From an uncultured Desulfobacteraceae bacterium (lineage in GTDB: Bacteria; Desulfobacterota; DSM-4660; Desulfatiglandales; HGW-15), in contig CAYQNR010000003.1 of NCBI GenBank assembly GCA_964418945.1, forward strand, positions 24,125-88,124: a DNA stretch of 64,000 nt, read 5' to 3'. Position 1 is the stretch's first letter. Every line of letters begins with the position of its first letter. A program made the translations under genes and the position numbers. Below, in pieces: positions 22,904-50,705 of this stretch. The notes under the pieces are model-generated. The model did not search any database. It was given only the letters and a program-made list of their open reading frames with translations, and was not told the DNA's origin.

Positions 22904-23770
22904 TCATATCCCAAGGGCCTGTGCCACACCATCCCATAATTTTCTGACAGCCTCGGCCCCCTCGGAATGCCCGTCATATTCAAAGATATTCTTTCCCTGT
23001 ACCATAGACTTTGTAAAAATCGGATCAAAAGGAATTCGGCCCATTACCTTGATCTGCCTTTCCCGGGCAAAGTCTTCTATGGCCAATGCCTCATCAGGAT
23101 TAAGATCAAATTTGTTGACACAGACCATGGCCGGGATCTTGAAAAAGGCGGCCAGGTCCGCCACTCGCTCCATATCATGCCTGCCCGAGACCGTCGGTTC
23201 AGCCACGATGAGCACCGCCGTGGCCCCGCCAAGAGAGGCGATCACCGGGCAACCTATCCCCGGAGGACCATCCGTGATAAGCATATCCAGATTGTTCTTT
23301 TCCACAAGCTTCTTTCCTTCCTGCCGGATAAGGGTCACCAGTTTCCCCGAGTTTTCTTCCGCAATGCCCAGCATGGCATAGGCCATGGGGCCGAAGCGGG
23401 TGTCGGCGATAAACCACTCCCCGCATGTGTTAAGGGGAAAGTCAATTGCCTCTTCAGGACAAAAATAATAACAGACCCCACATCCCTCGCACTGGATCGG
23501 GTCCACTACAAACTCTTCGCTAATCGCATTCCACCTGCACAAATCTCTGCAAAGGCCGCATTGTGTACATTTATCCTGATTGACGACGGCGGTATGACCT
23601 GACTGAAAATCATGGCGCTCCCTGACCTGAGGATCCACAATCAAATGAAGATCAGCCGCATCCACATCCGCATCGCAAAGCACCTTATTCCTTGCCAGGG
23701 ACGCGAAGGCCGCCATGATGCTCGTTTTCCCTGTACCGCCCTTTCCGCTTATAACAACCAGTTCTTTCAT
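22904..23770 (-). CDS. MinD-like P-loop ATPase with 2x[4Fe-4S] insert (Orange-protein complex Orp3/4-like)
   Basis: SGKGGTGKT, DADVDAADL, CTQCGLC..LC, CEGCGVC...CP, ENSGKLV, DGPPGIGCP, EPTVSG. Confidence 0.9.
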   Translation of the reverse strand: MKELVVISGKGGTGKTSIMAAFASLARNKVLCDADVDAADLHLIVDPQVRERHDFQSGHTAVVNQDKCTQCGLCRDLCRWNAISEEFVVDPIQCEGCGVCYYFCPEEAIDFPLNTCGEWFIADTRFGPMAYAMLGIAEENSGKLVTLIRQEGKKLVEKNNLDMLITDGPPGIGCPVIASLGGATAVLIVAEPTVSGRHDMERVADLAAFFKIPAMVCVNKFDLNPDEALAIEDFARERQIKVMGRIPFDPIFTKSMVQGKNIFEYDGHSEGAEAVRKLWDGVAQALGI

Positions 23771-23889
23771 CCCAAAATACCCCGCCTTACTTTTTTGTTT
23801 ATAAGAGTGCATCTATCATGGACTTGATGGTTGACTCGGGCACAGCCCCTATGACCTGATCCGCCTCTTGTCCTTTTATAAACCCCTTC

Positions 23890-24735
23890 CTATTTCCGAC
23901 GGGAAGCGATTTCTTCAATTTGATGCAATAGATCCTTGAATCTCTCCTTCCACTCCGGGAAGGCCTCTACGATCATCTCTCCCTTTGAGTAGGCCTCCGC
24001 TATCTTACGATCAAAAGGGATCTCCATCAAAATGGGCATCCTCTCGGTATTTGCGTATTCCCTGACGTGATCATCCCCTATGTCGGACCGGTTGATAACC
24101 AGCCCGCAGGGGATCTTCAGGATTTTCACTGCTCCCACGGCCAGCTTGAGATCGTGCAGACCGAAAGGGGTTGGTTCCGTAACCAGTAAAACAAAATCCG
24201 CATCCTTCATGGAGGCAATTACAGGACATGAGGTCCCGGGCGGGGCATCGATAATAGTCAGGACACCCGGTCGGGTATATTCCCGCACCTTTCTGATCAG
24301 AGGGGGTGACATGGCCTCCCCTATCCTTAACCTTCCGTGTATGAATTCCAGGCCGTCCCTATGTCCATACTCAATCACCCCAAGTTCCCGATCTACTTCG
24401 GTGATAGCCTTCTCGGGGCATACCTCCACACACCCTCCGCAACTATGGCAGAGTTCGTGGAAGGGCAAAACAGTTTCACCAATAACCACAATGGCCTTAA
24501 ACTGGCAGATCTCGCCGCACTTTCCACACAGGGTGCATTTTTCCATATCCACCTCGGGTACTGGCGTGGATATAGTTTTAGTGCCTTCAACCAAAGGCCT
24601 GATAAAGAGATGACTGTTAGGTTCTTCCACGTCACAATCCAAGAGCTGAACGTCGTTTTCAAGTGATGCGGCCAGATTGGTAGCCACGGTGGTCTTTCCG
24701 GTCCCTCCTTTTCCGCTTGCTATGCTGATGATCAT
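23890..24735 (-). CDS. MinD-like P-loop ATPase with 2x[4Fe-4S] insert (Orp3/4-like partner)
   Basis: SGKGGTGKT, DCDVEEPN, CTLCGKC, CHSCGGC, DAPPGTSCP, EPTPFGLHDL. Confidence 0.9.
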   Translation of the reverse strand: MIISIASGKGGTGKTTVATNLAASLENDVQLLDCDVEEPNSHLFIRPLVEGTKTISTPVPEVDMEKCTLCGKCGEICQFKAIVVIGETVLPFHELCHSCGGCVEVCPEKAITEVDRELGVIEYGHRDGLEFIHGRLRIGEAMSPPLIRKVREYTRPGVLTIIDAPPGTSCPVIASMKDADFVLLVTEPTPFGLHDLKLAVGAVKILKIPCGLVINRSDIGDDHVREYANTERMPILMEIPFDRKIAEAYSKGEMIVEAFPEWKERFKDLLHQIEEIASRRK

Positions 24736-28115: not shown

Positions 28116-28961
28116 ATGAGGAATATTTCAACAATAATCTCCAAGGTGCTTCCGCCCGCCATATTAATACCAATAGTATTGATTACATTTTCATTGCAAT
28201 ACAATCAGGCATGGACAGGGCCAGTCCATAAGGACACAGCACAGCTTGTAATAGTCTATGACAACAATATATGGGAACAGGGTTTAACACCCGCCTGGGG
28301 CTTTTCATGCCTGGTAATCCTTCCTGAATATCGTATCCTCTTTGATACAGGGGGTGACCCCTCCATATTGCTTGAGAATATGGATGAGATGGGTATTGAT
28401 CCCGAAGACATAGAAAGCGTGGTACTATCGCATATACACGGGGACCATATAGGCGGCCTTTCAGGGTTGCTTTCCCATAAAAACCGTCCCGTCACCGTCT
28501 ACCTCCCTGAATCCTTCCCTCATAACACCAAGGAACAGATAGCCCTTATGGAGGCCGATATTAAGGAAGTGGGAGGCCCCTTGATGATCCATCCGGGTGT
28601 TCACACTACCGGGGAACTCGGGGAGACCATAAAAGAGCAATCCCTTGTCCTTCAAACCCGCAAAGGCCTTGTGGTTATTACCGGTTGCGCTCACCCCGGT
28701 ATCGTGGAGATCGTTGATTTCGCCCGAAGCCATTTTAAGGAAAATGTCTATCTTCTTATCGGCGGCTTTCATCTCATAGGAAAATCTCAGAATGAGATAA
28801 AAGGAATCGCGGAGCAGTTAGATAAACTGGAGATAGACAGGATAGCTCCATGTCATTGCAGCGGAGATACGGCAAGGGAGGTTTTCAGGGATTATTATGG
28901 AGAAAACTACATTGAATGCGGGGCGGGCCTGGTATTGAATATTCCGGATATTAGAGAATGA
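28116..28961 (+). CDS. MBL-fold metallo-hydrolase (COG1237-like)
   Basis: VYDN, WGFSC, LFDTG, SHIHGDHIGG, GCAHPG, GGFH, HCSG. Confidence 0.9.
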   Translation: MRNISTIISKVLPPAILIPIVLITFSLQYNQAWTGPVHKDTAQLVIVYDNNIWEQGLTPAWGFSCLVILPEYRILFDTGGDPSILLENMDEMGIDPEDIESVVLSHIHGDHIGGLSGLLSHKNRPVTVYLPESFPHNTKEQIALMEADIKEVGGPLMIHPGVHTTGELGETIKEQSLVLQTRKGLVVITGCAHPGIVEIVDFARSHFKENVYLLIGGFHLIGKSQNEIKGIAEQLDKLEIDRIAPCHCSGDTAREVFRDYYGENYIECGAGLVLNIPDIRE

Positions 28962-31791: not shown

Positions 31792-32028
31792 CTAATTAAT
31801 ATGCCTTATTGTAATGGCATGTAATCGACAGGCCTCCAAACAATCCCCGCAGCCCATGCACATATCCTGAAATACAATGGGAGGCTCGAAAGCTCCGTCT
31901 ATCTGGGTCAGAACCTTATGTGTACACGCCTTTGCTGCTTCGCAAATACCTGTCTCCGGGTTGCACTTGCTTGGATCACATATATCGTAATCTACAAAAG
32001 CGAATTCCTTTTTTGGCTGAATAGACAT
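31792..32028 (-). CDS. small 4Fe-4S ferredoxin (RLI-type N-terminus)
   Basis: AFVDYDICDPSKC...C...C and CMGCGDCLEAC. Confidence 0.8.
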   Translation of the reverse strand: MSIQPKKEFAFVDYDICDPSKCNPETGICEAAKACTHKVLTQIDGAFEPPIVFQDMCMGCGDCLEACRLHAITIRHIN

Positions 32029-32375: not shown

Positions 32376-34247
32376 TCAAGAAGATAAATGTCTGTCTATT
32401 CCCTCCGCGGCTATTTTGGCGTCAGCAATGGCGGTTACCGCATCCAGATTTGTATTGACAATATCGCCGCCGGCAAAGACCTTTTCTATGGTGGTCTGTC
32501 CGTTCTCATCAACCTTAACCTTCCTTCTCTCGGTAAACTCAAGTTTCGCGAAAAGTTCTTCAGGTATAAATGAAAAATCTGTCCTCTGGCCGATGGCCTC
32601 GATTATCATATTCCCTTCCAGGAACATCTCTTTATCCTCATAAAAGGTAGGACTGAATCTGCCTTGCTCATCAAACACCGATTTTACCTTCACGCACTGA
32701 AGACCTTTTACCTCTCCTTCTTCACCTAAGACGACCTCCTTCGGCCCCCAGGCGGGATTAAAGCGGATTCCCTCCTCTTTTGCCTCTTCTATCTCATCTT
32801 CTTTTGCCGGCATTATATCCCAGTCTTCCAGAGACACGGTCTGGGTCATAATCTCTTTTCCCGGGTGCTGAATATTCTGCAGTCGGAGGGCCACCCTGGC
32901 CACATCCATGGCTACATTACCTCCGCCTATCACAACGGTCTTTTCACCTACTTCAACGGCCCTCCCGAGCTTATTATCTTCCAAGAAATTAAGCGCCAAA
33001 AGGCACTTTTCAGCATTCTTGACCCTGGTTGAATTGCTCCTGGTAGTCCCTATTCCCAGATAGACCGCATCGTAATCTCTCCTAATATCCTCGAATAGAA
33101 GATCTTCCCCCACAGTTGTATTAAACCTGAATTCAACCCCAAGAGAAGCAATATAATCCACATCTTGATCAATCGCCTCTATGGGCAATCTATAAACCGG
33201 GGGACCGATTCTCATGGTTCCTCCTCCACCCGGCAGAGAATCAAATACTGTTACCTCATGTCCTTTAAGCCTCAAAAAATAGGCCACTGACAGGCCCCCT
33301 GGTCCCGCGCCGATAACAGCAACCTTTTTGCCCGTAGGTTTACCCGGTTTAAGCTCTAAAGCAGTCTTGTAATCCCCAATAATATCAGCGACATATCTCT
33401 TCAGCCACCTTACAGCTACGGCCTCTCCTCTTATACTCAGGGAACATGCGTCTTCACAGTATTTCATGCATACCCTTCCACAGATAGCAGGAATCGGATT
33501 ATCTTCAAATATCTTCTTTAAAGACTCTTCCGGTTTATCTTCGTAGATTGCCCGGATATAGTCGGAAATCTTTAAATGGGCCGGACAGGCCTCTTCACAT
33601 AATCTACATTCCAGGCATCTGGATGCCTCCTTCTTTGCCTCCTCTTTGCTATAACCTATAACCTGCTCTATAAAGGATAGTTTCCTTGCCTCAGGCCTTA
33701 CCTCAGGCATTGGGACTCGTTCCGGTTCAAATAAGGAATATTCGAGATCGGATGAAAACCCCTCATAATCCTTTTTACGGTGGCTCAGGCTTGCCTTGAG
33801 CACGGAATATTCCTCAGCAGGGAAAAAATGTTCATTGTCCAACTTTTCATCTTTGGGGATGAAAGTAAAAGTGTCTGTATCAAAATGGATATGAAAATAG
33901 TCCCTGGAGAGGCTTAAGGACCCGGGAGGACATATATCTACACAGAGACCGCAAAAACAGCATCTGCCATAGTCAAGCCTGGGTCTTTCATTTTTTATCC
34001 CCTCTTTTGGTTTGCTCGCTAATTCAGGTATCTCTACCATCTCAATTGCTTCGTTAGGGCATATATCAGCACAATTACCGCACCCGGTGCATTTATCCCA
34101 GTCGTTAAGATGGAAACCCCTATATCTTAAAGCAGGCTCTTTAGGTTCGAAAGGATACCTCAAGGTCTTCGGTCTCTTCCAGAGAAACCTGATAGCTTTG
34201 AATGCCCCTAAAAAACTCCCTTTGTTTTTTTCTAATTTTTCCATCAT
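32376..34247 (-). CDS. NuoI/MbxN-like ferredoxin fused to GltD-like FAD/NAD(P)H oxidoreductase
   Basis: T..YPFE, CTGCGNCADICP, CCFCGLCVDICP; then SRCLEC..CEEACP, ICGRVC..YCE..C, GAGPGG, GGGNVAMD, FAGGD. Confidence 0.9.
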   Translation of the reverse strand: MMEKLEKNKGSFLGAFKAIRFLWKRPKTLRYPFEPKEPALRYRGFHLNDWDKCTGCGNCADICPNEAIEMVEIPELASKPKEGIKNERPRLDYGRCCFCGLCVDICPPGSLSLSRDYFHIHFDTDTFTFIPKDEKLDNEHFFPAEEYSVLKASLSHRKKDYEGFSSDLEYSLFEPERVPMPEVRPEARKLSFIEQVIGYSKEEAKKEASRCLECRLCEEACPAHLKISDYIRAIYEDKPEESLKKIFEDNPIPAICGRVCMKYCEDACSLSIRGEAVAVRWLKRYVADIIGDYKTALELKPGKPTGKKVAVIGAGPGGLSVAYFLRLKGHEVTVFDSLPGGGGTMRIGPPVYRLPIEAIDQDVDYIASLGVEFRFNTTVGEDLLFEDIRRDYDAVYLGIGTTRSNSTRVKNAEKCLLALNFLEDNKLGRAVEVGEKTVVIGGGNVAMDVARVALRLQNIQHPGKEIMTQTVSLEDWDIMPAKEDEIEEAKEEGIRFNPAWGPKEVVLGEEGEVKGLQCVKVKSVFDEQGRFSPTFYEDKEMFLEGNMIIEAIGQRTDFSFIPEELFAKLEFTERRKVKVDENGQTTIEKVFAGGDIVNTNLDAVTAIADAKIAAEGIDRHLSS

Positions 34248-35341
34248 CTGTCTATTTCCGGAGCAACAACATATAGGCTTATCATGATATTGCCCACATC
34301 GGCAATGCTGGCATCTTTTAACAACCTTTCCAGAATGGTCAACCCATGAGTATATGAAGGGGTCCTAAAGTTTACCCTATAGGGTTTATCCCCGCCATTG
34401 CTTACCATATAAAGACCTAACTCTCCTCTGGAAGACTCAATTCTTACATAGGCCTCTCCTTTTGGAATTTTCCATTTGAACGGGTTAAGCACCTTACTAT
34501 ATGCCTTTCCTTGAGGCATAGCGTCAAGGAGCTTGAATATCATATGAACGCTTTCTATCATCTCGTTCCTTATTACCCATATCCTCGAATAGGCGTCACC
34601 GTCTTCCCTTGTATGAACATCCCAGTCTATACTATCATAAGCGGCATAGCTTTCGACTTTCCTTACGTCATATTTTACGCCTGTAGCCCTCAGGACCTGG
34701 CCCATCGCCCCGAGCTTCTTTGCGTCTTCCCGGGTTATTTTCCCTATATCCTTGGCCCTATCGTAAAATAAACGGTTGTTAAAAAAGGTGGAATCATAAT
34801 CCGGCACACAGCCCCCTATGGAATGCAGGGTATTCACAATCCTATCCTTGAATCCCTCCGGGAAATCGCGCCTTACTCCACCGGGCCAGATATATATATG
34901 ATATACCCTCCCCCCTGTAAGTTCCTCAAAAAGGTCCAGGATAAGATCCCTGTGATACATGGCCCATTGAGCAACAGTATCAAAACCAAGCATATTGGAA
35001 TAGGCCCACAAACCAAACAGGTGGGAAGAGACCCTGGAAAGCTCCAGATATACGCTCCTTATATAGTGCGCCCTTTCCGGGACCTCTATATTGGCCAGTT
35101 TCTCAACGGCCATTGCATATACCATTTCCATTGGATCAGGTTCCACCACATTTATCCTGCATACCAATGGAAAGTTCTGTATCCAGGTCCTCAGTTCCAT
35201 GAGTTTTTCAAAACCTCTATGCAAATACCCGGGGTTGGCAGTCGCCTCCAGGATACGATCGCCTTCAACCTTTAAGGTAATGCTGAAGTTGCCTACCATC
35301 CCCAGATGCTGGGGTCCAAAATATAGTTCAAGTTCTCTCAT
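34244..35341 (-). CDS. mbxL: NuoD-like subunit, MbxL/MbsL type, without NiFe-binding CxxC motifs
   Basis: FGPQH, ANPGYLHRGFEKL, EELTGGRVYHIY..PGGVRRD, ES.RGE, KPYRV, C-terminal PEIDR. Confidence 0.85.
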   Translation of the reverse strand: MRELELYFGPQHLGMVGNFSITLKVEGDRILEATANPGYLHRGFEKLMELRTWIQNFPLVCRINVVEPDPMEMVYAMAVEKLANIEVPERAHYIRSVYLELSRVSSHLFGLWAYSNMLGFDTVAQWAMYHRDLILDLFEELTGGRVYHIYIWPGGVRRDFPEGFKDRIVNTLHSIGGCVPDYDSTFFNNRLFYDRAKDIGKITREDAKKLGAMGQVLRATGVKYDVRKVESYAAYDSIDWDVHTREDGDAYSRIWVIRNEMIESVHMIFKLLDAMPQGKAYSKVLNPFKWKIPKGEAYVRIESSRGELGLYMVSNGGDKPYRVNFRTPSYTHGLTILERLLKDASIADVGNIMISLYVVAPEIDR

Positions 35342-35892
35342 TTCTCTTTATTCTCTACAAACGGGATTTCGTCAAAAAAGTCCTTAACATATTTTCTCGT
35401 ATCAAAATCCTTTCTAAAAGGAGGTATTTCATATTCCCTTTCCAGAAAAAGCGGAATCAGTCTTGGATGCCCCTCAAAATCTATTCCGAAGAGCTCGTGT
35501 ATCTCACGCTCATAGGCTTCAGCGTTTTCAAAAACAGGGATTGCGGTAATAAATCTGGGGTCTTCCCTGGGGATTCTTGTCTTCAAGATTATGTTTAACC
35601 TGTTATCAACACCTGCCCTTTGATCAACCGGTTCATCAGGCATCTTGTTTCCAACCGGGGTTATGTCTGCTTTATAAGAACTGATTATGTAAATCAGCTC
35701 GAATTCGTTTTCTTCTATCCAGTCCGTACAGGATATTAGGGCCAGGTGGTCATATCCCTTATCCTTAAGAAAATTCAGTATGGTCAGGATCATAGCCCCC
35801 CGGGCGCTTATAATCAGCCTGCTGTTCTCTGGAACGAATATTTGAATGTCTTTAAATATAGATTCCAACTCATTTTTTAAAGCGCTAATCAT
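35338..35892 (-). CDS. NuoC/MbxK-like subunit
   Basis: DHL..ISC.DW, YEREIHELFGI.FEGHP.L, PPFRKDF. Confidence 0.88.
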   Translation of the reverse strand: MISALKNELESIFKDIQIFVPENSRLIISARGAMILTILNFLKDKGYDHLALISCTDWIEENEFELIYIISSYKADITPVGNKMPDEPVDQRAGVDNRLNIILKTRIPREDPRFITAIPVFENAEAYEREIHELFGIDFEGHPRLIPLFLEREYEIPPFRKDFDTRKYVKDFFDEIPFVENKEK

Positions 35893-36445
35893 TCCCGCCC
35901 CCTATTGAGTATAATGGCGGCCAATCAAGCTTGCCAAGCACCCTTTCCTGGTTCTCTCGATAATACTTGTATTTCTCCCTGTAGTTTACATACGCCTTGG
36001 CCTTTCCCTGATCAATTAATGTCCAGAGGTGTGTTACAGCGACAAATATTGCCTCGGGCCTGGGCATACACCCGGCAATCCAGCCATCTATAGGGATATA
36101 TTTGTCAAGATGCTTTATGGTATTGTATGAATCCCAGTACATGCCGCCGTTTATAGGGCAGGAGCCGAAACCTACTGCGTATTTTGGATCAGGCATCTGT
36201 TCATATGTCCTTATAATGGCCCTCAGGGTCTTTACCGAGACATATCCTGTAATTAGAAATAGATTTGCCTGCCTGGGAGTAGCTACAGGTATAACCCCAA
36301 ACCTTTCCGCGTCCCACCTTGCGGTTATAACCGGGGGTATCTCTATAATCCCGCAACCTGTACAAAAGTATATGGCCCAGAGGGAATACTTGTGTCCCAT
36401 CTTGCCGGGAGCTTTAAACCATTTTTTAATATCTTTTCTGTCCAT
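35885..36445 (-). CDS. mbxJ: NuoB-like Fe-S subunit, MbxJ/MbsJ type
   Basis: SLW...FCTGCG.IE, ERFG, ITGYV..KTL, GSCPINGG.YWD.YN, AGCMPRPEA. Confidence 0.88.
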   Translation of the reverse strand: MDRKDIKKWFKAPGKMGHKYSLWAIYFCTGCGIIEIPPVITARWDAERFGVIPVATPRQANLFLITGYVSVKTLRAIIRTYEQMPDPKYAVGFGSCPINGGMYWDSYNTIKHLDKYIPIDGWIAGCMPRPEAIFVAVTHLWTLIDQGKAKAYVNYREKYKYYRENQERVLGKLDWPPLYSIGGGND

Positions 36446-36449
36446 TGAA

Positions 36450-37340
36450 TTATCTTATTATCATAACCAGGATTAATCCCAAGAGAGATATGATCACAGG
36501 CCATTTCCACAGGTATTTAATTGCCTGCTCGATTCTAAATCTCGGGAAGACTCCATGAATAAAGGTTAATAAAATAAACACAACTAACATCTTTATAAAG
36601 AAGGTCAACGGGTTACTCCCGCCTCCCAGGAATAGATCCACGAATAAGGCGATATAAATAAATAAGCTGAAGGCGTGCCATATGTGAAATAGACCCAGAT
36701 GCCTGCCCCCGTATTCTACCGCGGGTCCTGATGAAATCTCTTGTGGCGCGCCTGCAACATCAAAAGGCCGAATCCCCAACATGGCCGGCAGGATTAAAAA
36801 ATAGGCTATCCCTGATAAGGCCAGCGGTGAGAACAAGGCCCACTGAAAATTCCTTTGATTCTCAACTATATCCACAATAGAGATCGTATTATAATAGGTC
36901 ATCAATGTAAGCAATACTAATAGAAATGAAACCTCATATCCCAAGGCTAATATAAGCTTCCTGGAAACCCCAATGCTGATATTCGGATTTGCGCCCTCGC
37001 CGCCGGATAGGGCAATCCCTAAAGGCGCAAAAAGCATAATATAAAGTATAACAAGTAATCCTCCTGAATTGCTCAGGGGGCATATTCCGCCAAATGGAAT
37101 AAAAAGCACCAGAATTATAGAACCTGCTAAAGCTAGGATTATGCCCAGATCAAAAACAGGGCCATGCGAGAACCCCTGCTGGTGAAATAATTTAATCAAA
37201 TCCAAAACGGGCTGAATGATCGGCGGACCGTAACGCCAATGGAGCCTTGCTGTAATCTTTCTGAACAGGCCTAAGAAAAATACCCCGACTATAAAGGCTA
37301 AAATGGGTGATACAATTATTTCCAATACTTTTATTACCAT
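36450..37340 (-). CDS. NuoH/MbxM-like membrane subunit
   Basis: RKITARLHWRYGPPI.QP, PFD...A.QEI..GP..EY.G, FPRFRIEQ. Confidence 0.9.
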   Translation of the reverse strand: MVIKVLEIIVSPILAFIVGVFFLGLFRKITARLHWRYGPPIIQPVLDLIKLFHQQGFSHGPVFDLGIILALAGSIILVLFIPFGGICPLSNSGGLLVILYIMLFAPLGIALSGGEGANPNISIGVSRKLILALGYEVSFLLVLLTLMTYYNTISIVDIVENQRNFQWALFSPLALSGIAYFLILPAMLGIRPFDVAGAPQEISSGPAVEYGGRHLGLFHIWHAFSLFIYIALFVDLFLGGGSNPLTFFIKMLVVFILLTFIHGVFPRFRIEQAIKYLWKWPVIISLLGLILVMIIR

Positions 37341-39178
37341 AGCTTCAATCCCATCTTAAGAATAATTAAGACGGCAAAAAACAGTACGATATAGGTTATA
37401 TAGTAACCCAGGTCTCCACAATATATCTTTCTTGTCTTATCACTTACGTTCTTAACTCCATTTGCCAGCCATTGGTAAAAGTCATCTACAAAATCCCTGA
37501 AATAGGGCCTGATCATTGCTGATAACGGGTTGTAAAATTCAACCGTGTGATGATATTTATCCCTTGGCACATGGGCCCCTGCCGCGTAACTGTTATCCTG
37601 GGAGATATTTACCTTTTTATCTCCTATAAAAAACAACAGCCAGGCAATGATTAATGCCACGCAGATTGCGGCAAATATGTTTACCATGTTCAAGATCCCT
37701 GTTTCGGAAGCGATCCCCCAGATTTCAACATTCTGAGGCTGAAAGCCAAAAGAAGTCGAGATCGTATCTATAACTTTAAGAGGGATTCCGGGGAGGATCC
37801 CAAAGACTACAACAACAAGGCTTAAAAAAATTACCGGGATCCTCATGGTAACAGGGGACTTTTGGACATTGCTGAATTTTTCCGGCAACTGCCCTAAGAA
37901 TATATTATGGATAAGCTTATATGAATAAAGGATTGTTCCCCATGTTCCAAAAAGAGCTATAAAGGCAAGGAACGGATGTTTCCCTAAAATCAAGGTCTTG
38001 TATATCAGCCACTTGGATACAAAACCATTAGTTGACGGGACACCAATTAAGCCTAATGCCCCTATCAAGGCACAAGTGAAGGTTATGGGCATTCTTTTTA
38101 TCAGGCCGCCAAGAGAATTTAGATCTCTTGTCCCTGTCCTGTATTCTACCGCGCCTATGCTCAAGAAAAGCAAGGATTTAAATGCGGCATGATTGAAGAA
38201 ATGGAATACCCCTCCCACAAAACCCAGACTCGTCCCGATAGTTATGCCTAAGATTATATATCCTACCTGGGCGATGCTTGACCAGGCCAGGAGTCTTTTG
38301 GCATCATCCTGTAAAACAGCAATGAACGTGGGGACAATAATAGTTATCGCTGCCAGTACGCAAAACAGGTAATGGAAACTTCCTCCTCCTATATTCAGAA
38401 ACAGGTTTAAGCCCGCGATTGCGTACATAAAAAGGATAAAACCATATGTGCCCATTTTAATTAATATCCCGGAAAGAACAGCACTAAAAGGAGAAGGTGC
38501 TTCGGAGTGGGCATCAGGAAGCCAGGTATGAAAAGGCGCAATCGCGTTCTTAATCCCAAAGGCAATACAAAAGGAAATTAAAATAAACAAGGTGTAGCCG
38601 GAGGAGGCTTGTGTAATAAAGGAAGAAACTAGTGTTATATCCAGACTTCCACAGTTTGCATAAAGGGATAATATCCCGATAAGCATAGCTACGGAGCCGA
38701 TAATAGACATGATAATATATTTCATGCCTGCCTGCAATGCAGGACCTTTATTATAACTTATTAAAAGAAATGTGGACCAGGACATAATCTCCCAGAAGAT
38801 ATAGAAGGAAACCAGGTCAGCGCTGAGAACAATGCCTAACATTCCGGCATTCACTAAAAGTAGCATTAAATAATAAAAGTCAAGCCTCTCTCTTCCCTTC
38901 ATATAGCTTAAAGAAAAGATCACAGAAAGAGATGTTATTGTCTGAATAGCTATGGCAAAAATCCAGGAAAGAGGGTTTATCCTTAAAAGAAGGGGTAGCC
39001 CTAAAAAAGAGAAATAGGTTAATTCCTCGGTTTTTCCATAGAAATACAAGATAGGAATAATCAGGATCAAAGAGATAAAGACGGCGAAAGCATCCCTTAA
39101 CTTGGATGAGACCTTACCCAAAAGATAGGTAAGAAATGCGCCACCAAAAGAAATAAAACCTAACTGTGCTAAATTCAC
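37334..39178 (-). CDS. MrpD/NuoL-like antiporter-type subunit (MbxH'-like)
   Basis: FYIFWEIM, PFHTWLPDAHSEAPSP.SAVLSG, KRLLAWSSI, NHAAFKSLLFL. Confidence 0.9.
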   Translation of the reverse strand: MNLAQLGFISFGGAFLTYLLGKVSSKLRDAFAVFISLILIIPILYFYGKTEELTYFSFLGLPLLLRINPLSWIFAIAIQTITSLSVIFSLSYMKGRERLDFYYLMLLLVNAGMLGIVLSADLVSFYIFWEIMSWSTFLLISYNKGPALQAGMKYIIMSIIGSVAMLIGILSLYANCGSLDITLVSSFITQASSGYTLFILISFCIAFGIKNAIAPFHTWLPDAHSEAPSPFSAVLSGILIKMGTYGFILFMYAIAGLNLFLNIGGGSFHYLFCVLAAITIIVPTFIAVLQDDAKRLLAWSSIAQVGYIILGITIGTSLGFVGGVFHFFNHAAFKSLLFLSIGAVEYRTGTRDLNSLGGLIKRMPITFTCALIGALGLIGVPSTNGFVSKWLIYKTLILGKHPFLAFIALFGTWGTILYSYKLIHNIFLGQLPEKFSNVQKSPVTMRIPVIFLSLVVVVFGILPGIPLKVIDTISTSFGFQPQNVEIWGIASETGILNMVNIFAAICVALIIAWLLFFIGDKKVNISQDNSYAAGAHVPRDKYHHTVEFYNPLSAMIRPYFRDFVDDFYQWLANGVKNVSDKTRKIYCGDLGYYITYIVLFFAVLIILKMGLKLW

Positions 39179-40722
39179 CTCAGTACTCCCTGGATGTATT
39201 TTATTCTATCAAGAAGCTCCAGGGAGGAAGAATTGAGAATATCACCCAAAAACTTCGGATAGATACCTATACCGATAATAAGCAATACGAGAATAACCAT
39301 GGGGATCAAAGCCACTATAGGTGCCCCTGTCTTTACAGCGTTAGAACTCTTTACCTCTTGTACCACAGAGGCTTCCGGGATCTTATTTACGATGGGGTCT
39401 GTCTCTTCGGTGTCTCCCTTGAAATAGAGAACCTGAATTACTTTAAAAAAATATGCCGCCTCGATCACTGTCCCCAACAGGACAATCCCTATAAAAACAA
39501 TGTATAAAGTACTATGTTTTTCCAAGACAGAGAGCACAATCCAAAATTTGCTGGGAAAGCCTACAAAAGGCGGAAGCCCTATCAAGGAAAAAGCGCCGAT
39601 GGTAAAACATAACGAAGACAGCGGCATCTTTTTCCCTATTCCTTCCAATGAAGAGATTTCCATCGAGCCTACTCGATAGATCATGTATCCTGTAGCCAAA
39701 AACAGAAGGGACTTAGAAAGGGCATGGGTTATAAACTGAAACAGGCCGGCAGCTATTCCATAATCCGTACCGATTCCTAAGGCAAAAAGGATAAGTCCTA
39801 TCTGGCCGATACTGGAGTAGGCAAGCATCCTTTTTATATTGTTTTGGCTGAACGCAGATAACTCTCCCACCAACAGGGTTAAAAGACCTAAAAGGACCAG
39901 GAAAAGCAACATATCAGATGCCCCAAAAATGGTGAACACCACCCTTGCTATGGCATAAATCCCTATCTTTATGGCTATCCCTGAAAGAACAGCGCTTATG
40001 GTGGAAGGAGCGGAAGAATGGGCATCCGGAAGCCAGGCATTCAAAGGAAAGATGGCCCCTTCAATTCCAAATCCGACGATGAATAGAACAAGAGGTATGA
40101 ATATTTGAATCGGGCTTACTGAATGTATATTTCCGGCGATATCAGCCATGTTGAGGGTCCCGAACTGTCCGTACAGAAGCGCGATCCCGATCAAAATAAA
40201 GGCAGAGCCTACGGAACCCTGAATCAGGTATTTGGCGGCAGATTCTACGCCCGCTCTATTTCCTAAATAACCTACCAGGGCGTAAGAGGAGATGCATAGG
40301 ATCTCAAAAAAGACAAAAAGATTGAATATATCCCCTGTCAAAACAACCCCTGTGGCACCTGTAAGAAGCGACAGATAAAGCATGTGATACTTCTCTTCAG
40401 CACCTTCCTTTATATAATCAAGCGCATATATGGAGACAAGAAAACCAACCAGGGCGATAACAGCGGAAAATAGGATACCTACCGGGCCCGCAAACAGGTT
40501 TATGCAGAAAGGGGGAGGGAATCCCGCAAGGGACACGACTATAGGTCTTTTGATAACTTCCGGCATTAGAATAAGAGAGATAACCAGATTAAACAGCATG
40601 GCAAGGGGAGGGATGAACCTTTCCACCCTTTTAGAAATAAATCCAAACAGAGGAATAGAAAAGGCAAATGCCAGAGGAACAGCTATAAGAAGGATGGGGT
40701 TTACCCAATTAGAGATTTCCAT
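39175..40722 (-). CDS. mnhD: MrpD/MnhD antiporter subunit
   Basis: GDIFNLFVFFEI, WLPDAHSSAP, IKRMLAYSSI, HALSKSLLF. Confidence 0.9.
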   Translation of the reverse strand: MEISNWVNPILLIAVPLAFAFSIPLFGFISKRVERFIPPLAMLFNLVISLILMPEVIKRPIVVSLAGFPPPFCINLFAGPVGILFSAVIALVGFLVSIYALDYIKEGAEEKYHMLYLSLLTGATGVVLTGDIFNLFVFFEILCISSYALVGYLGNRAGVESAAKYLIQGSVGSAFILIGIALLYGQFGTLNMADIAGNIHSVSPIQIFIPLVLFIVGFGIEGAIFPLNAWLPDAHSSAPSTISAVLSGIAIKIGIYAIARVVFTIFGASDMLLFLVLLGLLTLLVGELSAFSQNNIKRMLAYSSIGQIGLILFALGIGTDYGIAAGLFQFITHALSKSLLFLATGYMIYRVGSMEISSLEGIGKKMPLSSLCFTIGAFSLIGLPPFVGFPSKFWIVLSVLEKHSTLYIVFIGIVLLGTVIEAAYFFKVIQVLYFKGDTEETDPIVNKIPEASVVQEVKSSNAVKTGAPIVALIPMVILVLLIIGIGIYPKFLGDILNSSSLELLDRIKYIQGVLR

Positions 40723-40787
40723 TTATACCGACCATGCTCCTTGAAAAAACATAATCATTGTCACCAACATAACATTTCTAACAGGTC

Positions 40788-41147
40788 TTACCACCTCTGC
40801 TCTTTGATCTTTCTCATATCAAGGGTTCCATAATGCTGATACAACCTGATGGCTAGAGACAAGGCCATGGCCATGACCGCCACACCAATAACAATCGCTG
40901 TTAAGACAAGCGCCTGGACGGTCGGATCGACCATATTCTCTGAAGCAAGTCCCGGCTTAGAAAATATAGGCGCTGTTCCATCCTTTATATATCCTAAAGA
41001 TACAAGTAAAAGGTTAACCCCTGTATCCAAGACACAAATTCCTATTATCATCTTGATCAGATTATGTTTGGTTAAAAGGATATATAATCCGATCAATATA
41101 AGACCGAAAGCCCCGATGTAATAGATATAATCGGCCAAAAAACTCAT
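40788..41147 (-). CDS. mnhC: MrpC/MnhC antiporter subunit
   Basis: NLIKMIIG, GVNL, DPTVQALVLTAIVIG. Confidence 0.92.
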   Translation of the reverse strand: MSFLADYIYYIGAFGLILIGLYILLTKHNLIKMIIGICVLDTGVNLLLVSLGYIKDGTAPIFSKPGLASENMVDPTVQALVLTAIVIGVAVMAMALSLAIRLYQHYGTLDMRKIKEQRW

Positions 41148-41827
41148 TCGCTTTCCTCTATCAAGCCATCGATGATTCCGGTCAACTCGGAACCTACCTT
41201 AAAACCGATGGCGATATATATTATGGGGATGATGCCAGCGCTCAAAAGGGTATTTGGAATTCCCCTGGGCAGAAAATTAAAAAGAAAATACCCGCTTACA
41301 GCCAATCCTAAAAACCCTATAATTACGAATATCAATCCTGCCGAGGATTCTATAGCTTTGATACTCCTCTCTTTTACCCTTCTTTCACGACAACCTAAAT
41401 AGACCAAAAGGAAAGCCGAAGCAATAATTGCTCCACCCTGAAAACCACCTCCTGGCGTGAGGTGTCCGTGTAAAAATATGTAAGCGGCAAAGAGCAAGAT
41501 AAAAGGGAAAAGGGATCTACAACCCGTACTAAGCACAAGGCTTGAAGGCACAAATTCCCTTCCGGGTTTTTTCTTGACGGTGGCAAGGATAGCGCCCAAT
41601 CCCGTGGCAGCGATAAAAAGCACGGTAACCTCGCCGAGGGTATCAAATCCCCTATAGTTTAAAACTACCGATGTCACTATATTTACGGCGCCCGTCTGAT
41701 CGATCCCTTTATCTATATAATACCTGCCTACCTTGGTTTTTGGTACGGCAAAGGGGATTTCCGTAAGAGATAAACCAAACCCTAAAGCTATAATTATCAA
41801 TAAAATAAGGCCTATTATTCTTCTCAT
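41144..41827 (-). CDS. mnhB: MrpB/MnhB antiporter subunit
   Basis: N.VTSVVLNYRGFDTLGE, HGHLTPGGGFQGG. Confidence 0.92.
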   Translation of the reverse strand: MRRIIGLILLIIIALGFGLSLTEIPFAVPKTKVGRYYIDKGIDQTGAVNIVTSVVLNYRGFDTLGEVTVLFIAATGLGAILATVKKKPGREFVPSSLVLSTGCRSLFPFILLFAAYIFLHGHLTPGGGFQGGAIIASAFLLVYLGCRERRVKERSIKAIESSAGLIFVIIGFLGLAVSGYFLFNFLPRGIPNTLLSAGIIPIIYIAIGFKVGSELTGIIDGLIEESE

Positions 41828-42072
41828 TCTTCTCTCTTTGTTCTCCTGATCGCAATGACAAAAATAGCGGTTACCAACGCCGCGCCGATAGAGGCTTCAG
41901 CCATAGCCACATCCGGCGCCTGTAAAAGGAAAAAAAGTATGGCGGCTATCAAACTAACAATACAGCAGGCAATTACCGCACTCAGTAAATCCGAAAATAT
42001 ACAGGCGGAGATGGCGGCCACTAACATGACAAATACCAAAAGGACAATAAAGATCATATCTTTCTCCTCCAC
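41824..42072 (-). CDS. DUF4040 (MrpA C-terminal/MbxD-like) membrane subunit
   Basis: LQAPDVAMAEASIGA motif. Confidence 0.88.
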   Translation of the reverse strand: MEEKDMIFIVLLVFVMLVAAISACIFSDLLSAVIACCIVSLIAAILFFLLQAPDVAMAEASIGAALVTAIFVIAIRRTKREE

Positions 42073-42090
42073 CCGTTTAGAAATATATTT

Positions 42091-42420
42091 CTAATGGGTC
42101 TTGTATTCGTCGAATTCCTCACTTTTATCCACCACGCTTATTTTACACAAAGGCACCCCTATCTTTTTAGACGCCCTGCCTAAGGCATGATTGGATATCG
42201 GATTAGTCAAAAGGATGAATAAGGCAATAATTAAGGTCTTCCAAAACCAGGAAGGCTCCATTATGCCTACCCCGATAATGGTAAAGAAGGAACCGAAGGT
42301 GGTACACTTTGTCCCTGCCTGGAGCCTATTATAGACATCGGGTAACCTGAATATTCCCAGACTCCCCAAAAAGAGAAACATCGTGCCGATTCCGGTGACA
42401 ATCACCCCTACCACGTGCAT
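42091..42420 (-). CDS. mnhG: MrpG/MnhG antiporter subunit
   Basis: G..RLPDVYNRLQA.TK, TNPISNH. Confidence 0.92.
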   Translation of the reverse strand: MHVVGVIVTGIGTMFLFLGSLGIFRLPDVYNRLQAGTKCTTFGSFFTIIGVGIMEPSWFWKTLIIALFILLTNPISNHALGRASKKIGVPLCKISVVDKSEEFDEYKTH

Positions 42421-42672
42421 CTAAATCCCTCTTTCTAAAAATCTAGCTATGGCCACAGAACCCACAAAAATTAGAACCGCATACACCAGAGAAACATCCA
42501 GATAGACACTTCTTTTATAAAAATAACCCAACAGGACAAGTAAACCGACAGTAACCGTGGAAAGCGTATCTAATGCTACAGCCCTGTCCGGAGCAGTAGG
42601 CCCTTTAAGCATTCTCAGGAGACAAAGCACGATTCCGGCACCCACAAAACCAAGAAAGATAATCTCAATCAT
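42421..42672 (-). CDS. mnhF: MrpF/MnhF antiporter subunit
   Basis: GPTAPDRAVALD, DVSLVYA. Confidence 0.92.
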   Translation of the reverse strand: MIEIIFLGFVGAGIVLCLLRMLKGPTAPDRAVALDTLSTVTVGLLVLLGYFYKRSVYLDVSLVYAVLIFVGSVAIARFLERGI

Positions 42673-42745
42673 AAGGTAATCCTCTTAATATTCTAATATA
42701 CAAATAATGCTATATACACATAATAGGATATATATCTCAAAAAAA

Positions 42746-43012
42746 TTATCCTTTATCGATAATTTTCATAAATTCTTTCGTCCACTTGTTGACCACCTTG
42801 TAACATACCCTTGTGCCTTCTCTCCTCCCCCTGATTATCCCGCCGTCTTTTAAAATCCTTAGATGTTGCGAAATGGTGGATTGAGGAAGTCCCAAAGACT
42901 GCTGAACCTGAGAAACATTACATTCATTTTTAAGGAGCCCTGCTACAATCTGTAACCGGGCTGGATGAGCTAATGTCTTTAATACCCTACTCATTCGCTC
43001 AAATTTTTTCAT
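42746..43012 (-). CDS. ArsR/SmtB-family transcriptional regulator
   Basis: LKTLAHPARLQI, QSTISQHLRILK, RREG..V.Y. Confidence 0.92.
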   Translation of the reverse strand: MKKFERMSRVLKTLAHPARLQIVAGLLKNECNVSQVQQSLGLPQSTISQHLRILKDGGIIRGRREGTRVCYKVVNKWTKEFMKIIDKG

Positions 43013-43512
43013 TCAAATAACACCTTCAAATATTTTTCGAATTTTTCCCCTATGATTTTTGTCGCCTCCTCTATATCTTCCGCCTTTACATTAATCCAAT
43101 GAACAACTAGATTATCACCCAATATATCTAAGGTAAAAGTCCCCGGCGTAAGCGTAATAGAATTTGCTAAAAACAGCTTTGCTATATCTTGCTTTAATCC
43201 TGTCTTAATAGTCACAATCCCCGGTTTTATAGGCATCTTGGGGTGTAATATCCTATAAGCAACATCTAAATTTGCTTTGACAATCTCTTTAAAAAGAACA
43301 GCTATATAAACTATAAGATATACCAATCTTTTGAGGCTTAAAGAAGGGAGTCCCAGGTCGAGGTAAAATTTATTGCAGAATAACGCCAGGATAAAACTAA
43401 CAACAAGCCCTGTTAAAAGCTCCTGAATCCTTAAGGATGAAGTGAGGCATAGCCATACTAAAAAAAGAAATAAAAATAAGTAAATAAAATTTTTAGCTTT
43501 TTCTTTTATCAT
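43009..43512 (-). CDS. mnhE: MrpE/MnhE antiporter subunit
   Basis: AN.DVA..IL.P...IKPG, LANSITLTPGT. Confidence 0.93.
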   Translation of the reverse strand: MIKEKAKNFIYLFLFLFLVWLCLTSSLRIQELLTGLVVSFILALFCNKFYLDLGLPSLSLKRLVYLIVYIAVLFKEIVKANLDVAYRILHPKMPIKPGIVTIKTGLKQDIAKLFLANSITLTPGTFTLDILGDNLVVHWINVKAEDIEEATKIIGEKFEKYLKVLFE

Positions 43513-43722: not shown

Positions 43723-45063
43723 TTACCCTTTTCTAGCCTTGTTTGCAGCAATCAGGATAGGATCCCATGCCGGTGCAAAGGGCGGTGCATAACCCAGATC
43801 CAGATGATACACATCCTCTGCCGTCATTCCTGCTTGTAAGGCCGCAGCCATCACATCGATTCTATGGGCAACTCCTTCCCTGCCTATCATCTGAGCGCCC
43901 AGTAATCTACGGATACCTGTTTCCGTGATAAAATGAACGGTTATTAAATAACCCCCCGGATAATGCTTGGATCTGGACCTGTGACGTATAGTGGTTGCAT
44001 AGGCATCGAATCCCTCCCGTTCCGCCTCTTTTAGACTGAGCCCGGTTCGTGCAACCTCCAGGTCAAATATCTTTGATACGGCGGTACCCACAATACCGGG
44101 GAATTCGGTATTAAGCCCTCCGATATTCTCACCTGCCACCCTTCCCGCCTTATTGGCTGTGGTTCCAAGCGGTATATACGCCGGTTTCCTGCTTATTATA
44201 TGATATGCCTCGGCACAATCACCCCCTGAATACACCCGATCCAGATTTGTTTGCTGGCGCTTGTTTACAGCAATCGCACCTGTCGCCCCTATTTCCACTC
44301 CTATTTGCTTTCCGAGAGCTGTGTTGGGAAGAGCGCCCTTTGCAACAAGTACCGTCTCACTCTTTACCTCCCCATGGTTGGTCACTACCTTCTCCACCCT
44401 TCCGGAACCCTCGAAGGAAAGCACATCCGTATCAGTATGAATCTCCACCCCCTTTGATCTCACCTCTTCCTCAACCAAAGCGGACATTTCCGGATCAAAG
44501 TTCAACAGCATCTGGGATGTCTTCTTCAATATGGTAACATGCTTTCCCATACTCACAAAAGCCTCTGCCATCTCAAGGCCTATATACCCTCCACCACAAA
44601 TTACAACATTCCCCGCATGGCGGGCGCTGTCCCGAATAGCAATAGCGTCCTCCACGGTCCGCAAGGTATATACACCCGTCAATTCTTCTCCATCAACACC
44701 CAGTGTTTTACCGGTAGCCCCGGTGGCAATCATGAGGTAATCGAACGGTTCCCGGAAAGTCCTATGTCCACCCAAATCCTCCACAACCACATACCCATTC
44801 TTATAGTCTATCTCAACTACCTCATGTCTCCTGTGGATGGGGATGGAACGTTTCCGTTCAAATTCCTCCGGGGTGACCTCGATAAGATCTTCCGGCTGAG
44901 GGACAAGGCCTGACACAAAATAGGGCTCAGAACACGCCCCATAAGATATATACCCCGATCTTTCAAAGACTACGGCGTTCATCTCTTCCTTTTTAAGCCG
45001 CTTAGCAGCGCTTGCAGCAGATAGCCCTGCAGCAACCCCGCCTACCACCACCAATCTATCCAC
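43723..45063 (-). CDS. CoA-disulfide reductase / NADH oxidase-like flavoprotein
   Basis: GGVAAGLSAA, SYGAC (active Cys), ATG, GGGYIGLE, GDC, PLGTTA.K.G, LGAQ, DL.YAPPF. Confidence 0.9.
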   Translation of the reverse strand: MDRLVVVGGVAAGLSAASAAKRLKKEEMNAVVFERSGYISYGACSEPYFVSGLVPQPEDLIEVTPEEFERKRSIPIHRRHEVVEIDYKNGYVVVEDLGGHRTFREPFDYLMIATGATGKTLGVDGEELTGVYTLRTVEDAIAIRDSARHAGNVVICGGGYIGLEMAEAFVSMGKHVTILKKTSQMLLNFDPEMSALVEEEVRSKGVEIHTDTDVLSFEGSGRVEKVVTNHGEVKSETVLVAKGALPNTALGKQIGVEIGATGAIAVNKRQQTNLDRVYSGGDCAEAYHIISRKPAYIPLGTTANKAGRVAGENIGGLNTEFPGIVGTAVSKIFDLEVARTGLSLKEAEREGFDAYATTIRHRSRSKHYPGGYLITVHFITETGIRRLLGAQMIGREGVAHRIDVMAAALQAGMTAEDVYHLDLGYAPPFAPAWDPILIAANKARKG

Positions 45064-46300: not shown

Positions 46301-46942
46301 TTAGATGGTTAAGACCTTGCCCGCTCCACCACCAACATATTTCTCGGGGTATAGCGCCTTTATCTCTGATTTATATTGGGTACAATGACAGGGGCAGATC
46401 ATGTTGAGGTCTTTAACAACATCGAACTGTCGGAAGCCATGAAGCCCCCCCACAAGGGCATGGAGAGGGCCGAACCGGGATGCCGTTTTGAGAATACTCT
46501 CCACACCCGGGTGGGAACACCCGGCAATGACTGTCAGACCTTTTTCTGTTCTGACAGCTAAGGACTGCTCAATCCCCTTGAGTTCACCTGTAGAGAAGAC
46601 ACCCTCGCTAATCTCTAAGGCTTCCTTAACTACGATCACCTCTCTTGCTCCCTTTGGCTCAGGACATGTAGCGGGGATGTAGACCTTCACTTCCTTATTT
46701 TCATCCAAAAGCCGCGAAAGCCCGCCTGTATGATCCCAATGAGCATGGGAGATAACAACTATACCGATTGAGAGAGGATCCAATCCAAGCTTTTTCATGT
46801 TGGACAGAAGGATTGAACCGTTTGCGCCTGTATCAAAAAGGATATTGGGGGTATCTTCCCTTTCTATAAGGCAAGAGAAACCCCAATCCGGTTCCAGGCC
46901 CGTGGTATGGACCTCGTTATCATAGACAAGTGTTATCTTCAT
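46301..46942 (-). CDS. MBL-fold metallo-hydrolase (COG1237-like)
   Basis: VYDN, WGFSC, FDTG, SHAHWDHTGG, GCSHPG, GGLH, CHCT. Confidence 0.9.
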   Translation of the reverse strand: MKITLVYDNEVHTTGLEPDWGFSCLIEREDTPNILFDTGANGSILLSNMKKLGLDPLSIGIVVISHAHWDHTGGLSRLLDENKEVKVYIPATCPEPKGAREVIVVKEALEISEGVFSTGELKGIEQSLAVRTEKGLTVIAGCSHPGVESILKTASRFGPLHALVGGLHGFRQFDVVKDLNMICPCHCTQYKSEIKALYPEKYVGGGAGKVLTI

Positions 46943-50691: not shown

Positions 50692-50705
50692 ATTAAACCG
50701 ACCTT

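Follow-up and report, generated by a model that had tools for sequence, protein, structure and literature searches.

The stretch of DNA analysed here, 64,000 nucleotides from an uncultured Desulfobacteraceae bacterium (contig CAYQNR010000003.1, positions 24,125 to 88,124; hereafter the window), carries on its minus strand an operon of 14 open reading frames (ORFs; 43512..32376) with the gene set and order of the sulfane-reducing complex MBS (formerly Mbx) of Pyrococcus. Its last subunit, N, is a fusion of a NuoI-like protein with a GltD-type flavoprotein, and its large subunit, L, lacks both of the vestigial NiFe-site cysteines (Cys) that MBS retains. MBS/Mbx-like complexes with a GltD-type NAD(H) module are known; what is new is the tight and widespread Cys-less clade to which the window complex belongs. 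The reading that we favour, tentatively and with a rough probability of 0.42, is that of an NADH-fed, ion-pumping MBS derivative that reduces sulfane sulfur. NADH would be oxidised at the FAD of the fused domain of N, from where electrons would pass through two GltD-type [4Fe-4S] clusters and the two NuoI-type [4Fe-4S] clusters of N to the proximal [4Fe-4S] cluster of subunit J, which, with the shortened CxxC of MbsJ, probably offers an open Fe site. In the chamber formed by L, J and M a sulfane-sulfur compound (polysulfide, or derived from elemental sulfur, S0) would then be reduced, and this reduction would be coupled to H+ or Na+ translocation by the Mrp-type membrane arm.

MBS/Mbx-type complexes are regarded as stepping stones that link Mrp antiporters, membrane-bound hydrogenases and complex I, and to our knowledge only the archaeal, ferredoxin-dependent enzyme has so far been studied biochemically. 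The clade described here was found in at least 80 species-level genomes from sulfidic sediments, labelled as many bacterial phyla, with a redox core that is 80-90% conserved. If the complex is NADH-fed, it would offer fermenters a major, uncharacterised and energy-conserving way of passing electrons from NADH to sulfur or another acceptor, and an NADH-input module would have been added to the MBS/complex I scaffold more than once in evolution.

An MBS gene set with a fused flavoprotein subunit

The operon consists of 13 structural genes and one ArsR-type regulator, and holds the whole 13-subunit MBS set in one place (MrpE/F/G/B/C-like, two MrpD-like and NuoH/B/C/D/I-like subunits). Two putative MrpD-like pumps, a Na+/H+ antiporter module and a NuoH-like anchor make up the membrane arm, with subunits J, K, L and N in the peripheral arm. 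Three overlapping ORFs near the tail of the operon, spanning 34244-36445 on the minus strand, encode L, K and J; an earlier note on this DNA, made from the sequence alone, had assigned them to an MBS/Mbx-type complex that is not a hydrogenase, and this was borne out by the analyses below, in which chains of the MBS structure 6u8y were the closest matches and none of the four Ni-Fe Cys was present. Relatives were collected by scanning one genome per GTDB species with exact 8-mer seeds, and the best 80 of 173 were used; the same gene order recurred across these 80 loci.

The feature that makes the complex non-canonical, which the earlier note had overlooked and which we regard as the main one, is the fusion in subunit N (32376..34247, minus strand; 623 amino acids), encoded by the last gene of the operon and assigned by Pfam, NCBIfam and PDB matches. 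Residues ~5-130 are NuoI/MbsN-like with two [4Fe-4S] clusters (match to 6u8y_N, 1.9e-29), and residues ~176-622 form a flavoprotein of the NfnB/GltD/SudA type, with Fer4_20, FAD and NAD(P)H domains (PF14691, Fer4_20, 9.8e-28; PF07992, Pyr_redox_2, 5.7e-25) and with NfnB-like proteins as its best PDB matches (9bov, 9n5u, 8oh5 (StnC), 4ylf_B and 5jca_L). N also aligned end to end with PRK13984, an NCBIfam model of a fused protein, at 697 bits, under the model's cut-off of 946. Fused N followed L in related loci wherever the contig extended far enough.

After the second beta strand of its nucleotide-binding fold, N reads V-S-L-E-D-W-D-I-M, whereas five NADPH-binding PDB relatives read Y-R-R-[T/S]-x-x-E-M, and a 5-7-residue insertion relative to NfnB/GltD proteins precedes the strand. 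The clade form of this motif is SLE[DS]W, with the Leu-Glu pair kept in 68/68 aligned sequences (67 clade members and one relative, L081). By a general Rossmann-fold rule, the change from an Arg pair to an acidic residue is a classical marker of NAD(H) preference, and the replacement of YRR by SLE thus predicts NADH rather than NADPH as the donor of N.

The putative catalytic interface of subunits L and J

Subunit L (34244..35341, minus strand; NuoD/MbsL-like, 365 amino acids) has P. furiosus MbsL as its top PDB match (6u8y_L, phmmer E 1.5e-99, 45% identity). Its two former metal-site motifs read FPLVC61-R-I-N64-V-V-E67 near the N-terminus and S-L-Y357-V-V359-A-P-E362-I-D-R365 at the C-terminus, and the phmmer alignment placed N64 against MbsL Cys85 (RICVPE) and V359 against Cys385 (SLDNCPPDIDR). 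The earlier note had read CRINVVE (Asn64) and SLYVVAPEIDR (Val359) as lacking the Cys at both catalytic positions, and had cited the MbsL motifs and their numbering; both proved right. Across the window sequence and its 80 relatives, position 64 was Asn in 81/81 and position 359 was V, T or I and never Cys. Because none of the four Ni-Fe cysteines is present (N64, E67, V359 and E362 stand in their places), the predicted complex cannot be a [NiFe] hydrogenase. A Cys beside the site, at position 61, had been pointed out in the earlier note, together with the question whether it or another Cys might align at the catalytic positions; among the 81 L sequences no other Cys aligned to either vestigial NiFe position, nor does Cys61 itself. 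Cys61 appears instead as a clade-specific residue, invariant in 81/81, that adjoins the ex-NiFe site in the sequence, and the loop between beta strands 1 and 2 is one residue longer than in MbsL.

A sequencing error or a pseudogene behind the Cys loss was ruled out by the 81/81 agreement, and selenocysteine at the lost positions by a continuous ORF with Asn and Val at these residues. The L genes of the 80 loci showed neither frameshifts nor internal stop codons. Two further columns varied in their Cys content, with C178 being Cys in 69/81 sequences and the column at window Ile ~301 being Cys in 57/81.

The quinone-site residues of complex I were also replaced, with the equivalent of Nqo4 His38 being Val16 in 79/81 sequences (Ile in the rest) and that of Tyr87 being Val65 in 80/81. 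An AlphaFold2 (AF2) model of L (pLDDT 95.3) gave a TM of 0.96 to MbsL and of 0.96-0.97 to many complex I 49-kDa subunits, so that the fold does not discriminate between them. L scored 410 against the NCBIfam model NF004739 (NADH-quinone oxidoreductase subunit D; cut-off 360), and since L is without the quinone ligands this automatic name is doubtful and probably wrong.

Subunit J (35885..36445, minus strand; NuoB/MbsJ-like, with the proximal [4Fe-4S] cluster that is catalytic in MBS) reads FCTGCG and GGMYWDSYN where MbsJ reads FCTGCG and GGIYWDAYN. The MbxJ-type motifs named in the earlier note were thus confirmed, in a gapless alignment with 6u8y_J (E 1.5e-65) and with the same CxxC loop length. 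Among 68 clade sequences the ligands C31 and C126 were invariant and C96 was present in 67/68, while C28, which corresponds to the non-ligand C25 of MbsJ, was kept in 66/68 (Gly or Ala in the other two). The motif is C-T-G-C and not a tandem Cys-Cys; NdhK reads sCC.

These observations bear directly on what the loss of Cys in L can mean. In MBS, the catalytic site has been identified as the proximal [4Fe-4S] cluster of MbsJ, held by the three ligands C28, C93 and C123 (PMC7684303; review PMC8165549), and the CxxC loop of MbsJ is three residues shorter than in MBH, which leaves three Cys ligands (PMC7684303). Activity was lost and regained on conversion of this cluster from [4Fe-4S] to [3Fe-4S] and back (PMC7684303), and an MbsL C85A/C385A mutant had wild-type reductase activity on the model trisulfide dimethyltrisulfide (DMTS; Yu et al. 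2020, PMC7684303). The claim that Cys85 and Cys385 of MbsL act in polysulfide reduction, on which the earlier note had leaned, is contradicted by this mutant; the residues lost from L are the equivalents of vestigial NiFe ligands, which are dispensable for the in-vitro activity of MBS. As the double mutant is active and the three-Cys proximal-cluster motif of MbsJ is, on the alignment, kept in J, the loss of Cys from L is no argument against sulfane reduction, and alone it says little about the function of the complex. The statement that this is not a canonical sulfane reductase therefore stands insofar as the complex is not a canonical MBS, but the reason given for it, the Cys loss, does not, since the catalytic motif of J is kept.

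To place the clade, more distant L relatives were taken from a HMMER search of 50%-identity cluster representatives. Within the clade, L identity to the window ranged from 78-91% in the best 80 of 173 loci, a range that, like the spread over phyla, is biased towards close relatives by the seeding and by this choice. The source metagenome-assembled genomes (MAGs) were labelled as Planctomycetota, Bacteroidales, Spirochaetota, Zixibacteria, WOR-3, Aerophobetes, Fermentibacteria, Desulfobacterota and others, these labels being as deposited and partly unreliable. The nearest representatives outside the clade (P0002, P0004 and P0005) shared 45-46% identity in L and all keep both Cys. In a rough neighbour-joining tree (corrected p-distances, 145 taxa, 362 columns, 100 bootstraps; deeper nodes at 37-68%) the window clade was monophyletic (100%), lay within an MBS-like group with MbsL, P0002, P0004, P0005, P0085, P0009 and P0006 (59-68% bootstrap) and stood away from complex-I-type sequences. 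Since the near relatives all keep both Cys and the clade is nested among them, the loss is, on this tree, a derived and independent event inside the MBS radiation.

The fusion in N appears older than this loss, because the P0005-type operon (locus L081), whose L keeps both Cys, also has a fused N, which is 44% identical along its whole length; in P0002, P0004 and P0009 the N subunit stands alone.

Constraint on the complex was uneven. Median identity to the window across loci was 83% for L and 82% for J, 75-76% for the two halves of N, 61-70% for the small Mrp-like subunits, 60-64% for H, H' and M, and 55% for K, the least conserved subunit. By this measure the L/J interface is the most constrained part of the complex, which speaks against decay of the peripheral arm. 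With a GC content of 0.426, against 0.481 in the rest of the window, the operon is richer in AT than its surroundings, and this, together with L and J being 80-90% and membrane subunits about 60% identical across MAGs labelled as many phyla, suggests old lateral spread under very strong constraint on the redox core. The window region was found in salt-marsh sediment metagenomes with a word share of 0.99.

Regulation, sulfur and the readings weighed

Rex is an NADH/NAD+-sensing repressor, and Rex-controlled genes are typically NADH-consuming and not NADH-producing. Clustering of the genes that flank related loci found nothing conserved beyond the operon except rex, which immediately preceded the operon in 13 loci (L006, L016, L020, L023, L037, L043, L044, L045, L047, L068, L069, L073 and L075) and immediately followed it in three (L036, L051 and L067). 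In the 1.2 kb upstream of mnhE, Rex-box-like palindromes, placed upstream of rex or mnhE, numbered 27 in 20/41 loci, where ~3.6 were expected from the background rate; those upstream of rex often came as two overlapping copies, and in loci with no adjacent rex the palindromes lay 59-236 nt upstream of mnhE. This association fits an NADH-consuming electron sink and lends independent support to NADH as the donor.

Other neighbours have possible links with thiol or sulfur chemistry. Homologues of the ArsR-family helix-turn-helix regulator (42746..43012, minus strand; HTH_5, 1.2e-12; two conserved Cys), which lies inside the operon in the window, were found between mnhE and mrpF or directly after N in the window and 12 further loci (L010, L014, L031, L034, L038, L040, L041, L058, L064, L068, L076 and L079). 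Their Cys motifs, NEC[NS]V and xCY[KR]V, were kept in all close homologues and lost in distant ones, and the protein may sense redox state or persulfides through its thiols. Directly upstream of the operon, on the same strand, the window carries a gene for a flavoprotein of the CoADR/NSR/NADH-oxidase family (43723..45063, minus strand; Pyr_redox_2 and Pyr_redox_dim), matching PDB 6ruz (3.7e-124) and Pyrococcus CoADR 3kd9/4fx9 (1e-112). This gene is not conserved as such in related loci, and is a possible accessory gene rather than a conserved part of the operon. A different CoADR/NSR-like gene (450 amino acids, PCGIPY motif) stands between mnhE and arsR/mrpF in five loci (L005 1177-2523; L038 1125-2477; also L031, L076 and L078); the best PDB matches of its product are Pyrococcus CoADR and a CoA-persulfide reductase, and it shares only 27% identity with the protein upstream of the operon in the window. 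In bacteria studied by others, S0 induced mbxA of the 13-gene MBX cluster of Thermotoga maritima 4.4-fold, and nsr along with it (PMC9431562), and a bacterial MBS was induced by S0 in strain 3DAC (PMC10356935).

Sulfane reduction driven by NADH has to be set against several points, and these weigh against it. The main weakness is twofold. One half is energetic: the step from NADH (-320 mV) to polysulfide (about -260 mV) is small for two pumps and an antiporter module. The other is the remodelled pocket of L, discussed next. On the donor side, the specificity for NADH is argued from a general Rossmann-fold rule, and ferredoxin could still play a part, given that the nearest relatives of the fused domain are bifurcating NfnB-type proteins. 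Neither a rex gene nor a Rex box was found in the window itself, the CoADR association holds for a minority of loci, and the locus was not found in any RNA run searched.

Fifteen residues of L are invariant in the clade and occur in none of the 7 MBS-like relatives, and 8/15 cluster in two regions. C61, N64 and Y357 lie in the pair of ex-NiFe motifs, and W112, Y114, N116, D121 and H130 lie on a helix hairpin that corresponds to Nqo4 residues 134-152 and in complex I lines the Q chamber. Y357 sits at the position of Nqo4 D401. The replacement of the Cys, taken with about a dozen other clade-specific invariant residues, indicates an L chamber that, as far as alignments can tell, has been remodelled and is strongly constrained, not dead, and given the 15 signature residues the substrate may differ from that of MBS. 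An unlikely reading, kept for this reason, is an NADH-fed complex whose remodelled chamber reduces another acceptor, such as an organic persulfide or disulfide (for example CoA-persulfide), thiosulfate or another hydrophobic carrier, with Cys61, Asn64, Tyr357 and the W112-H130 hairpin as the new putative site. It would account for the signature residues and their concentration, for the invariance of Cys61 when only 36% of L positions are invariant and L conservation is extreme, and for the neighbours resembling CoADR and CoA-persulfide reductase; against it, the catalytic motif of J is unchanged from MBS and the sequence names no candidate substrate. A fuller version of this idea, which we hold to be doubtful, would have a widespread, Rex-controlled, NADH-driven ion pump assembled from MBS and a GltD/NfnB-type NADH module, independently of the recruitment of NuoEFG in complex I, with a rebuilt L/J chamber (Cys61, Asn64, Tyr357 and the W112-H130 hairpin) whose acceptor would not be inorganic polysulfide. 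If true, such a pump would represent a second, convergent complex-I-like solution in sediment anaerobes labelled as many phyla.

Alternatively, and in our estimate improbably, the complex could be an ion-translocating ferredoxin:NAD(P)+ oxidoreductase, Rnf-like in function, in which electrons would run from ferredoxin through the Fe-S chain to the GltD-like FAD with no external acceptor at L and J, as in the older reading of Mbx. Anoxic sediments are the source of the MAGs, and the organisms are probably fermenters that make reduced ferredoxin; yet Rex-controlled genes, as noted above, typically consume NADH. This model draws on the fused nicotinamide-binding flavoprotein, and has been put forward for mbx-like operons with a GltD-type gene in Thermotoga and proteobacteria (PMC4758237) and for Mesotoga (10.1101/322537), but for P. 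furiosus Mbx it has been superseded by sulfane reduction (PMC7684303). Electrons passing from ferredoxin to FAD need never reach the proximal cluster at L, J and M, which leaves the coupling to the membrane arm unexplained, and the bypassed subunits L and J are the most conserved of all.

The earlier note had suggested a quinone as a possible acceptor, and with it an evolutionary intermediate between MBS and complex I. Both suggestions now look very improbable, even though L, like complex I, has none of the four NiFe Cys, its C-terminal SLYVVAPEIDR is similar to LDVVFGEIDR of complex I, its score exceeds the NF004739 cut-off (410 > 360), and Y357 takes the place of a residue, D401, near the quinone head-group site of Nqo4 (PMC4758237). 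Val16 and Val65 stand in place of His38 and Tyr87 in 79-80 of the 81 sequences, J has a CxxC and no tandem CC, and the clade is nested among MBS-like sequences that all have the two Cys, with the loss being derived. Large subunits with neither the Cys nor the His/Tyr pair, which correspond to the Ehr concept of the literature, are not rare and made up 20/136 full-length representatives, so that Cys loss recurs without quinone use. In addition, many of the source lineages are probably fermenters, which often lack menaquinone. Hardly credible, finally, is a decayed, non-catalytic peripheral arm that would leave the complex as an Mrp-type cation/proton antiporter, for which the loss of the vestigial Cys and the lack of an acceptor identifiable from sequence could be cited, since conservation is higher in L, J and N than in any of the membrane subunits, all Fe-S ligands and FAD/NAD motifs are intact and the L genes are uninterrupted. 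Sulfane reduction fed by NADH thus stays the favoured reading.

Other genes of the window and comparison with known systems

The remaining genes of the operon, all on the minus strand, were assigned as follows. The first encodes an MnhE/MrpE-like membrane subunit in the MbsA position (43009..43512; PF01899, MNHE, 1.2e-42; syntenic in 41 related loci). After the ArsR-type gene come small subunits resembling MrpF (MbsB position; 42421..42672; PF04066, 1.3e-21), MrpG (MbsC position; 42091..42420; PF03334, 5.5e-25), MbhD (MbsD position; 41824..42072; PF13244, 2.8e-18), MbhE/MnhB (MbsE position; 41144..41827; PF20501 and PF04039) and NuoK/MrpC (MbsG position; 40788..41147; PF00420, 2.9e-25). Two putative proton pumps follow, the MrpD-type antiporter-like subunit H (39175..40722; Proton_antipo_M, 3.9e-63) and the second, MrpA/NuoL-like antiporter-like subunit H' (37334..39178; Proton_antipo_M, 3.6e-67, and Proton_antipo_N), then the NuoH-like membrane anchor M (36450..37340; PF00146, 3.6e-59) and, between J and L, the NuoC/MbsK-like subunit K (35338..35892; PF00329, 4e-28). 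A scan for promoters and terminators gave counts at or below shuffle expectation.

Downstream of N by 348 nt, on the same strand, lies a Cys-rich ORF of 78 amino acids (31792-32028, minus strand) with a weak Fer4 match (3.6e-05), which was not a conserved neighbour in related loci. Elsewhere in the window, three paralogous ORFs (28116-28961, plus strand; 46301-46942 and 52345-53181, minus strand) share an N-terminal VYDN..GL.P.WGFS and SHxHxDH and look metallo-beta-lactamase-like by eye, and ORFs at 48848-51536 resemble ABC-transporter components by eye. Further genes (3932-6520, 9073-10512, 16739-17767, 20315-22234 and 22904-24735) encode a molybdopterin oxidoreductase with an AhtL-like N-terminal domain, SelA, MoaA, a RACo-type corrinoid activase and two Fer4-containing MinD/ParA-like NTPases. 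These neighbours mark an anaerobic, selenocysteine-using chromosome.

Compared with known systems, the window complex is nearest to P. furiosus MBS, with which it shares the 13-subunit set and order, the best matches of L, J and the N-terminal part of N (all to 6u8y chains), the MbsJ-type FCTGCG with three ligand Cys, two MrpD-like subunits with an Mrp module and the absence of the quinone His/Tyr. It differs in that MbsL keeps Cys85 and Cys385, whereas the window L has neither and adds signature residues of its own. MbsN is a stand-alone protein with 2x[4Fe-4S] that is fed by ferredoxin, whereas the window N is a 623-residue fusion, and because of the NfnB/GltD-type flavoprotein so joined to it, NADH is the probable donor, instead of or in addition to ferredoxin. 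The window complex is, moreover, bacterial and widespread, known from salt-marsh and other sediment metagenomes, and has an ArsR-type gene in its operon.

Among bacteria, mbx-like operons in which NuoI is replaced by a GltD-related flavoprotein have been described from Thermotoga and proteobacteria (Degli Esposti 2015, PMC4758237), and share with the window the Mrp-Mbx core ending in a NuoI-like and GltD-like NAD(P)-binding flavoprotein. In contrast to the window clade, the vestigial Cys are still present in the published NuoD homologues of these operons (PMC4758237) and in P0005, the relative with a fused N. The P0005-type locus L081 differs further from the window in that H and H' are fused (1046 amino acids; 4340-7480 of L081) and in that a DHO_dh gene of the dihydroorotate-dehydrogenase family (PF01180; 13074-14054) follows the fused N, a pairing like that of DPD/PreTA. 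In L081, J reads FGTGCG, the non-ligand Cys being already gone.

The C-terminal 450 residues of N resemble the NfnB/GltD/SudA family in their Fer4_20 (two [4Fe-4S]), FAD and NAD(P) domains, and depart from it in being fused to a NuoI-like domain, in having no NfnA-like partner gene and in the replacement of the YRR 2'-phosphate motif by SLE. Ehr complexes, by second-hand descriptions (PMC4758237, PMC6349859), likewise have a large subunit related to group 4 hydrogenases with neither Ni-Fe nor quinone ligands; unlike them, the window complex unites all the subunits of MBS with a fused NAD(H) module, and its L has affinity to MbsL and not to the other Cys-less clusters among the 136 representatives. 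With complex I (NDH-1), finally, it shares the NuoD-like fold, the absence of NiFe Cys, the predicted NADH-type input and an L-shaped modular design. The window complex lacks His38/Tyr87 and the tandem Cys of the NuoB homologue, has no NuoEFG genes in its operon and an unrelated GltD/NfnB-type flavoprotein as its NADH module, and combines an Mrp-type membrane arm with MrpE/F/G/B homologues and an L that groups phylogenetically with MBS.

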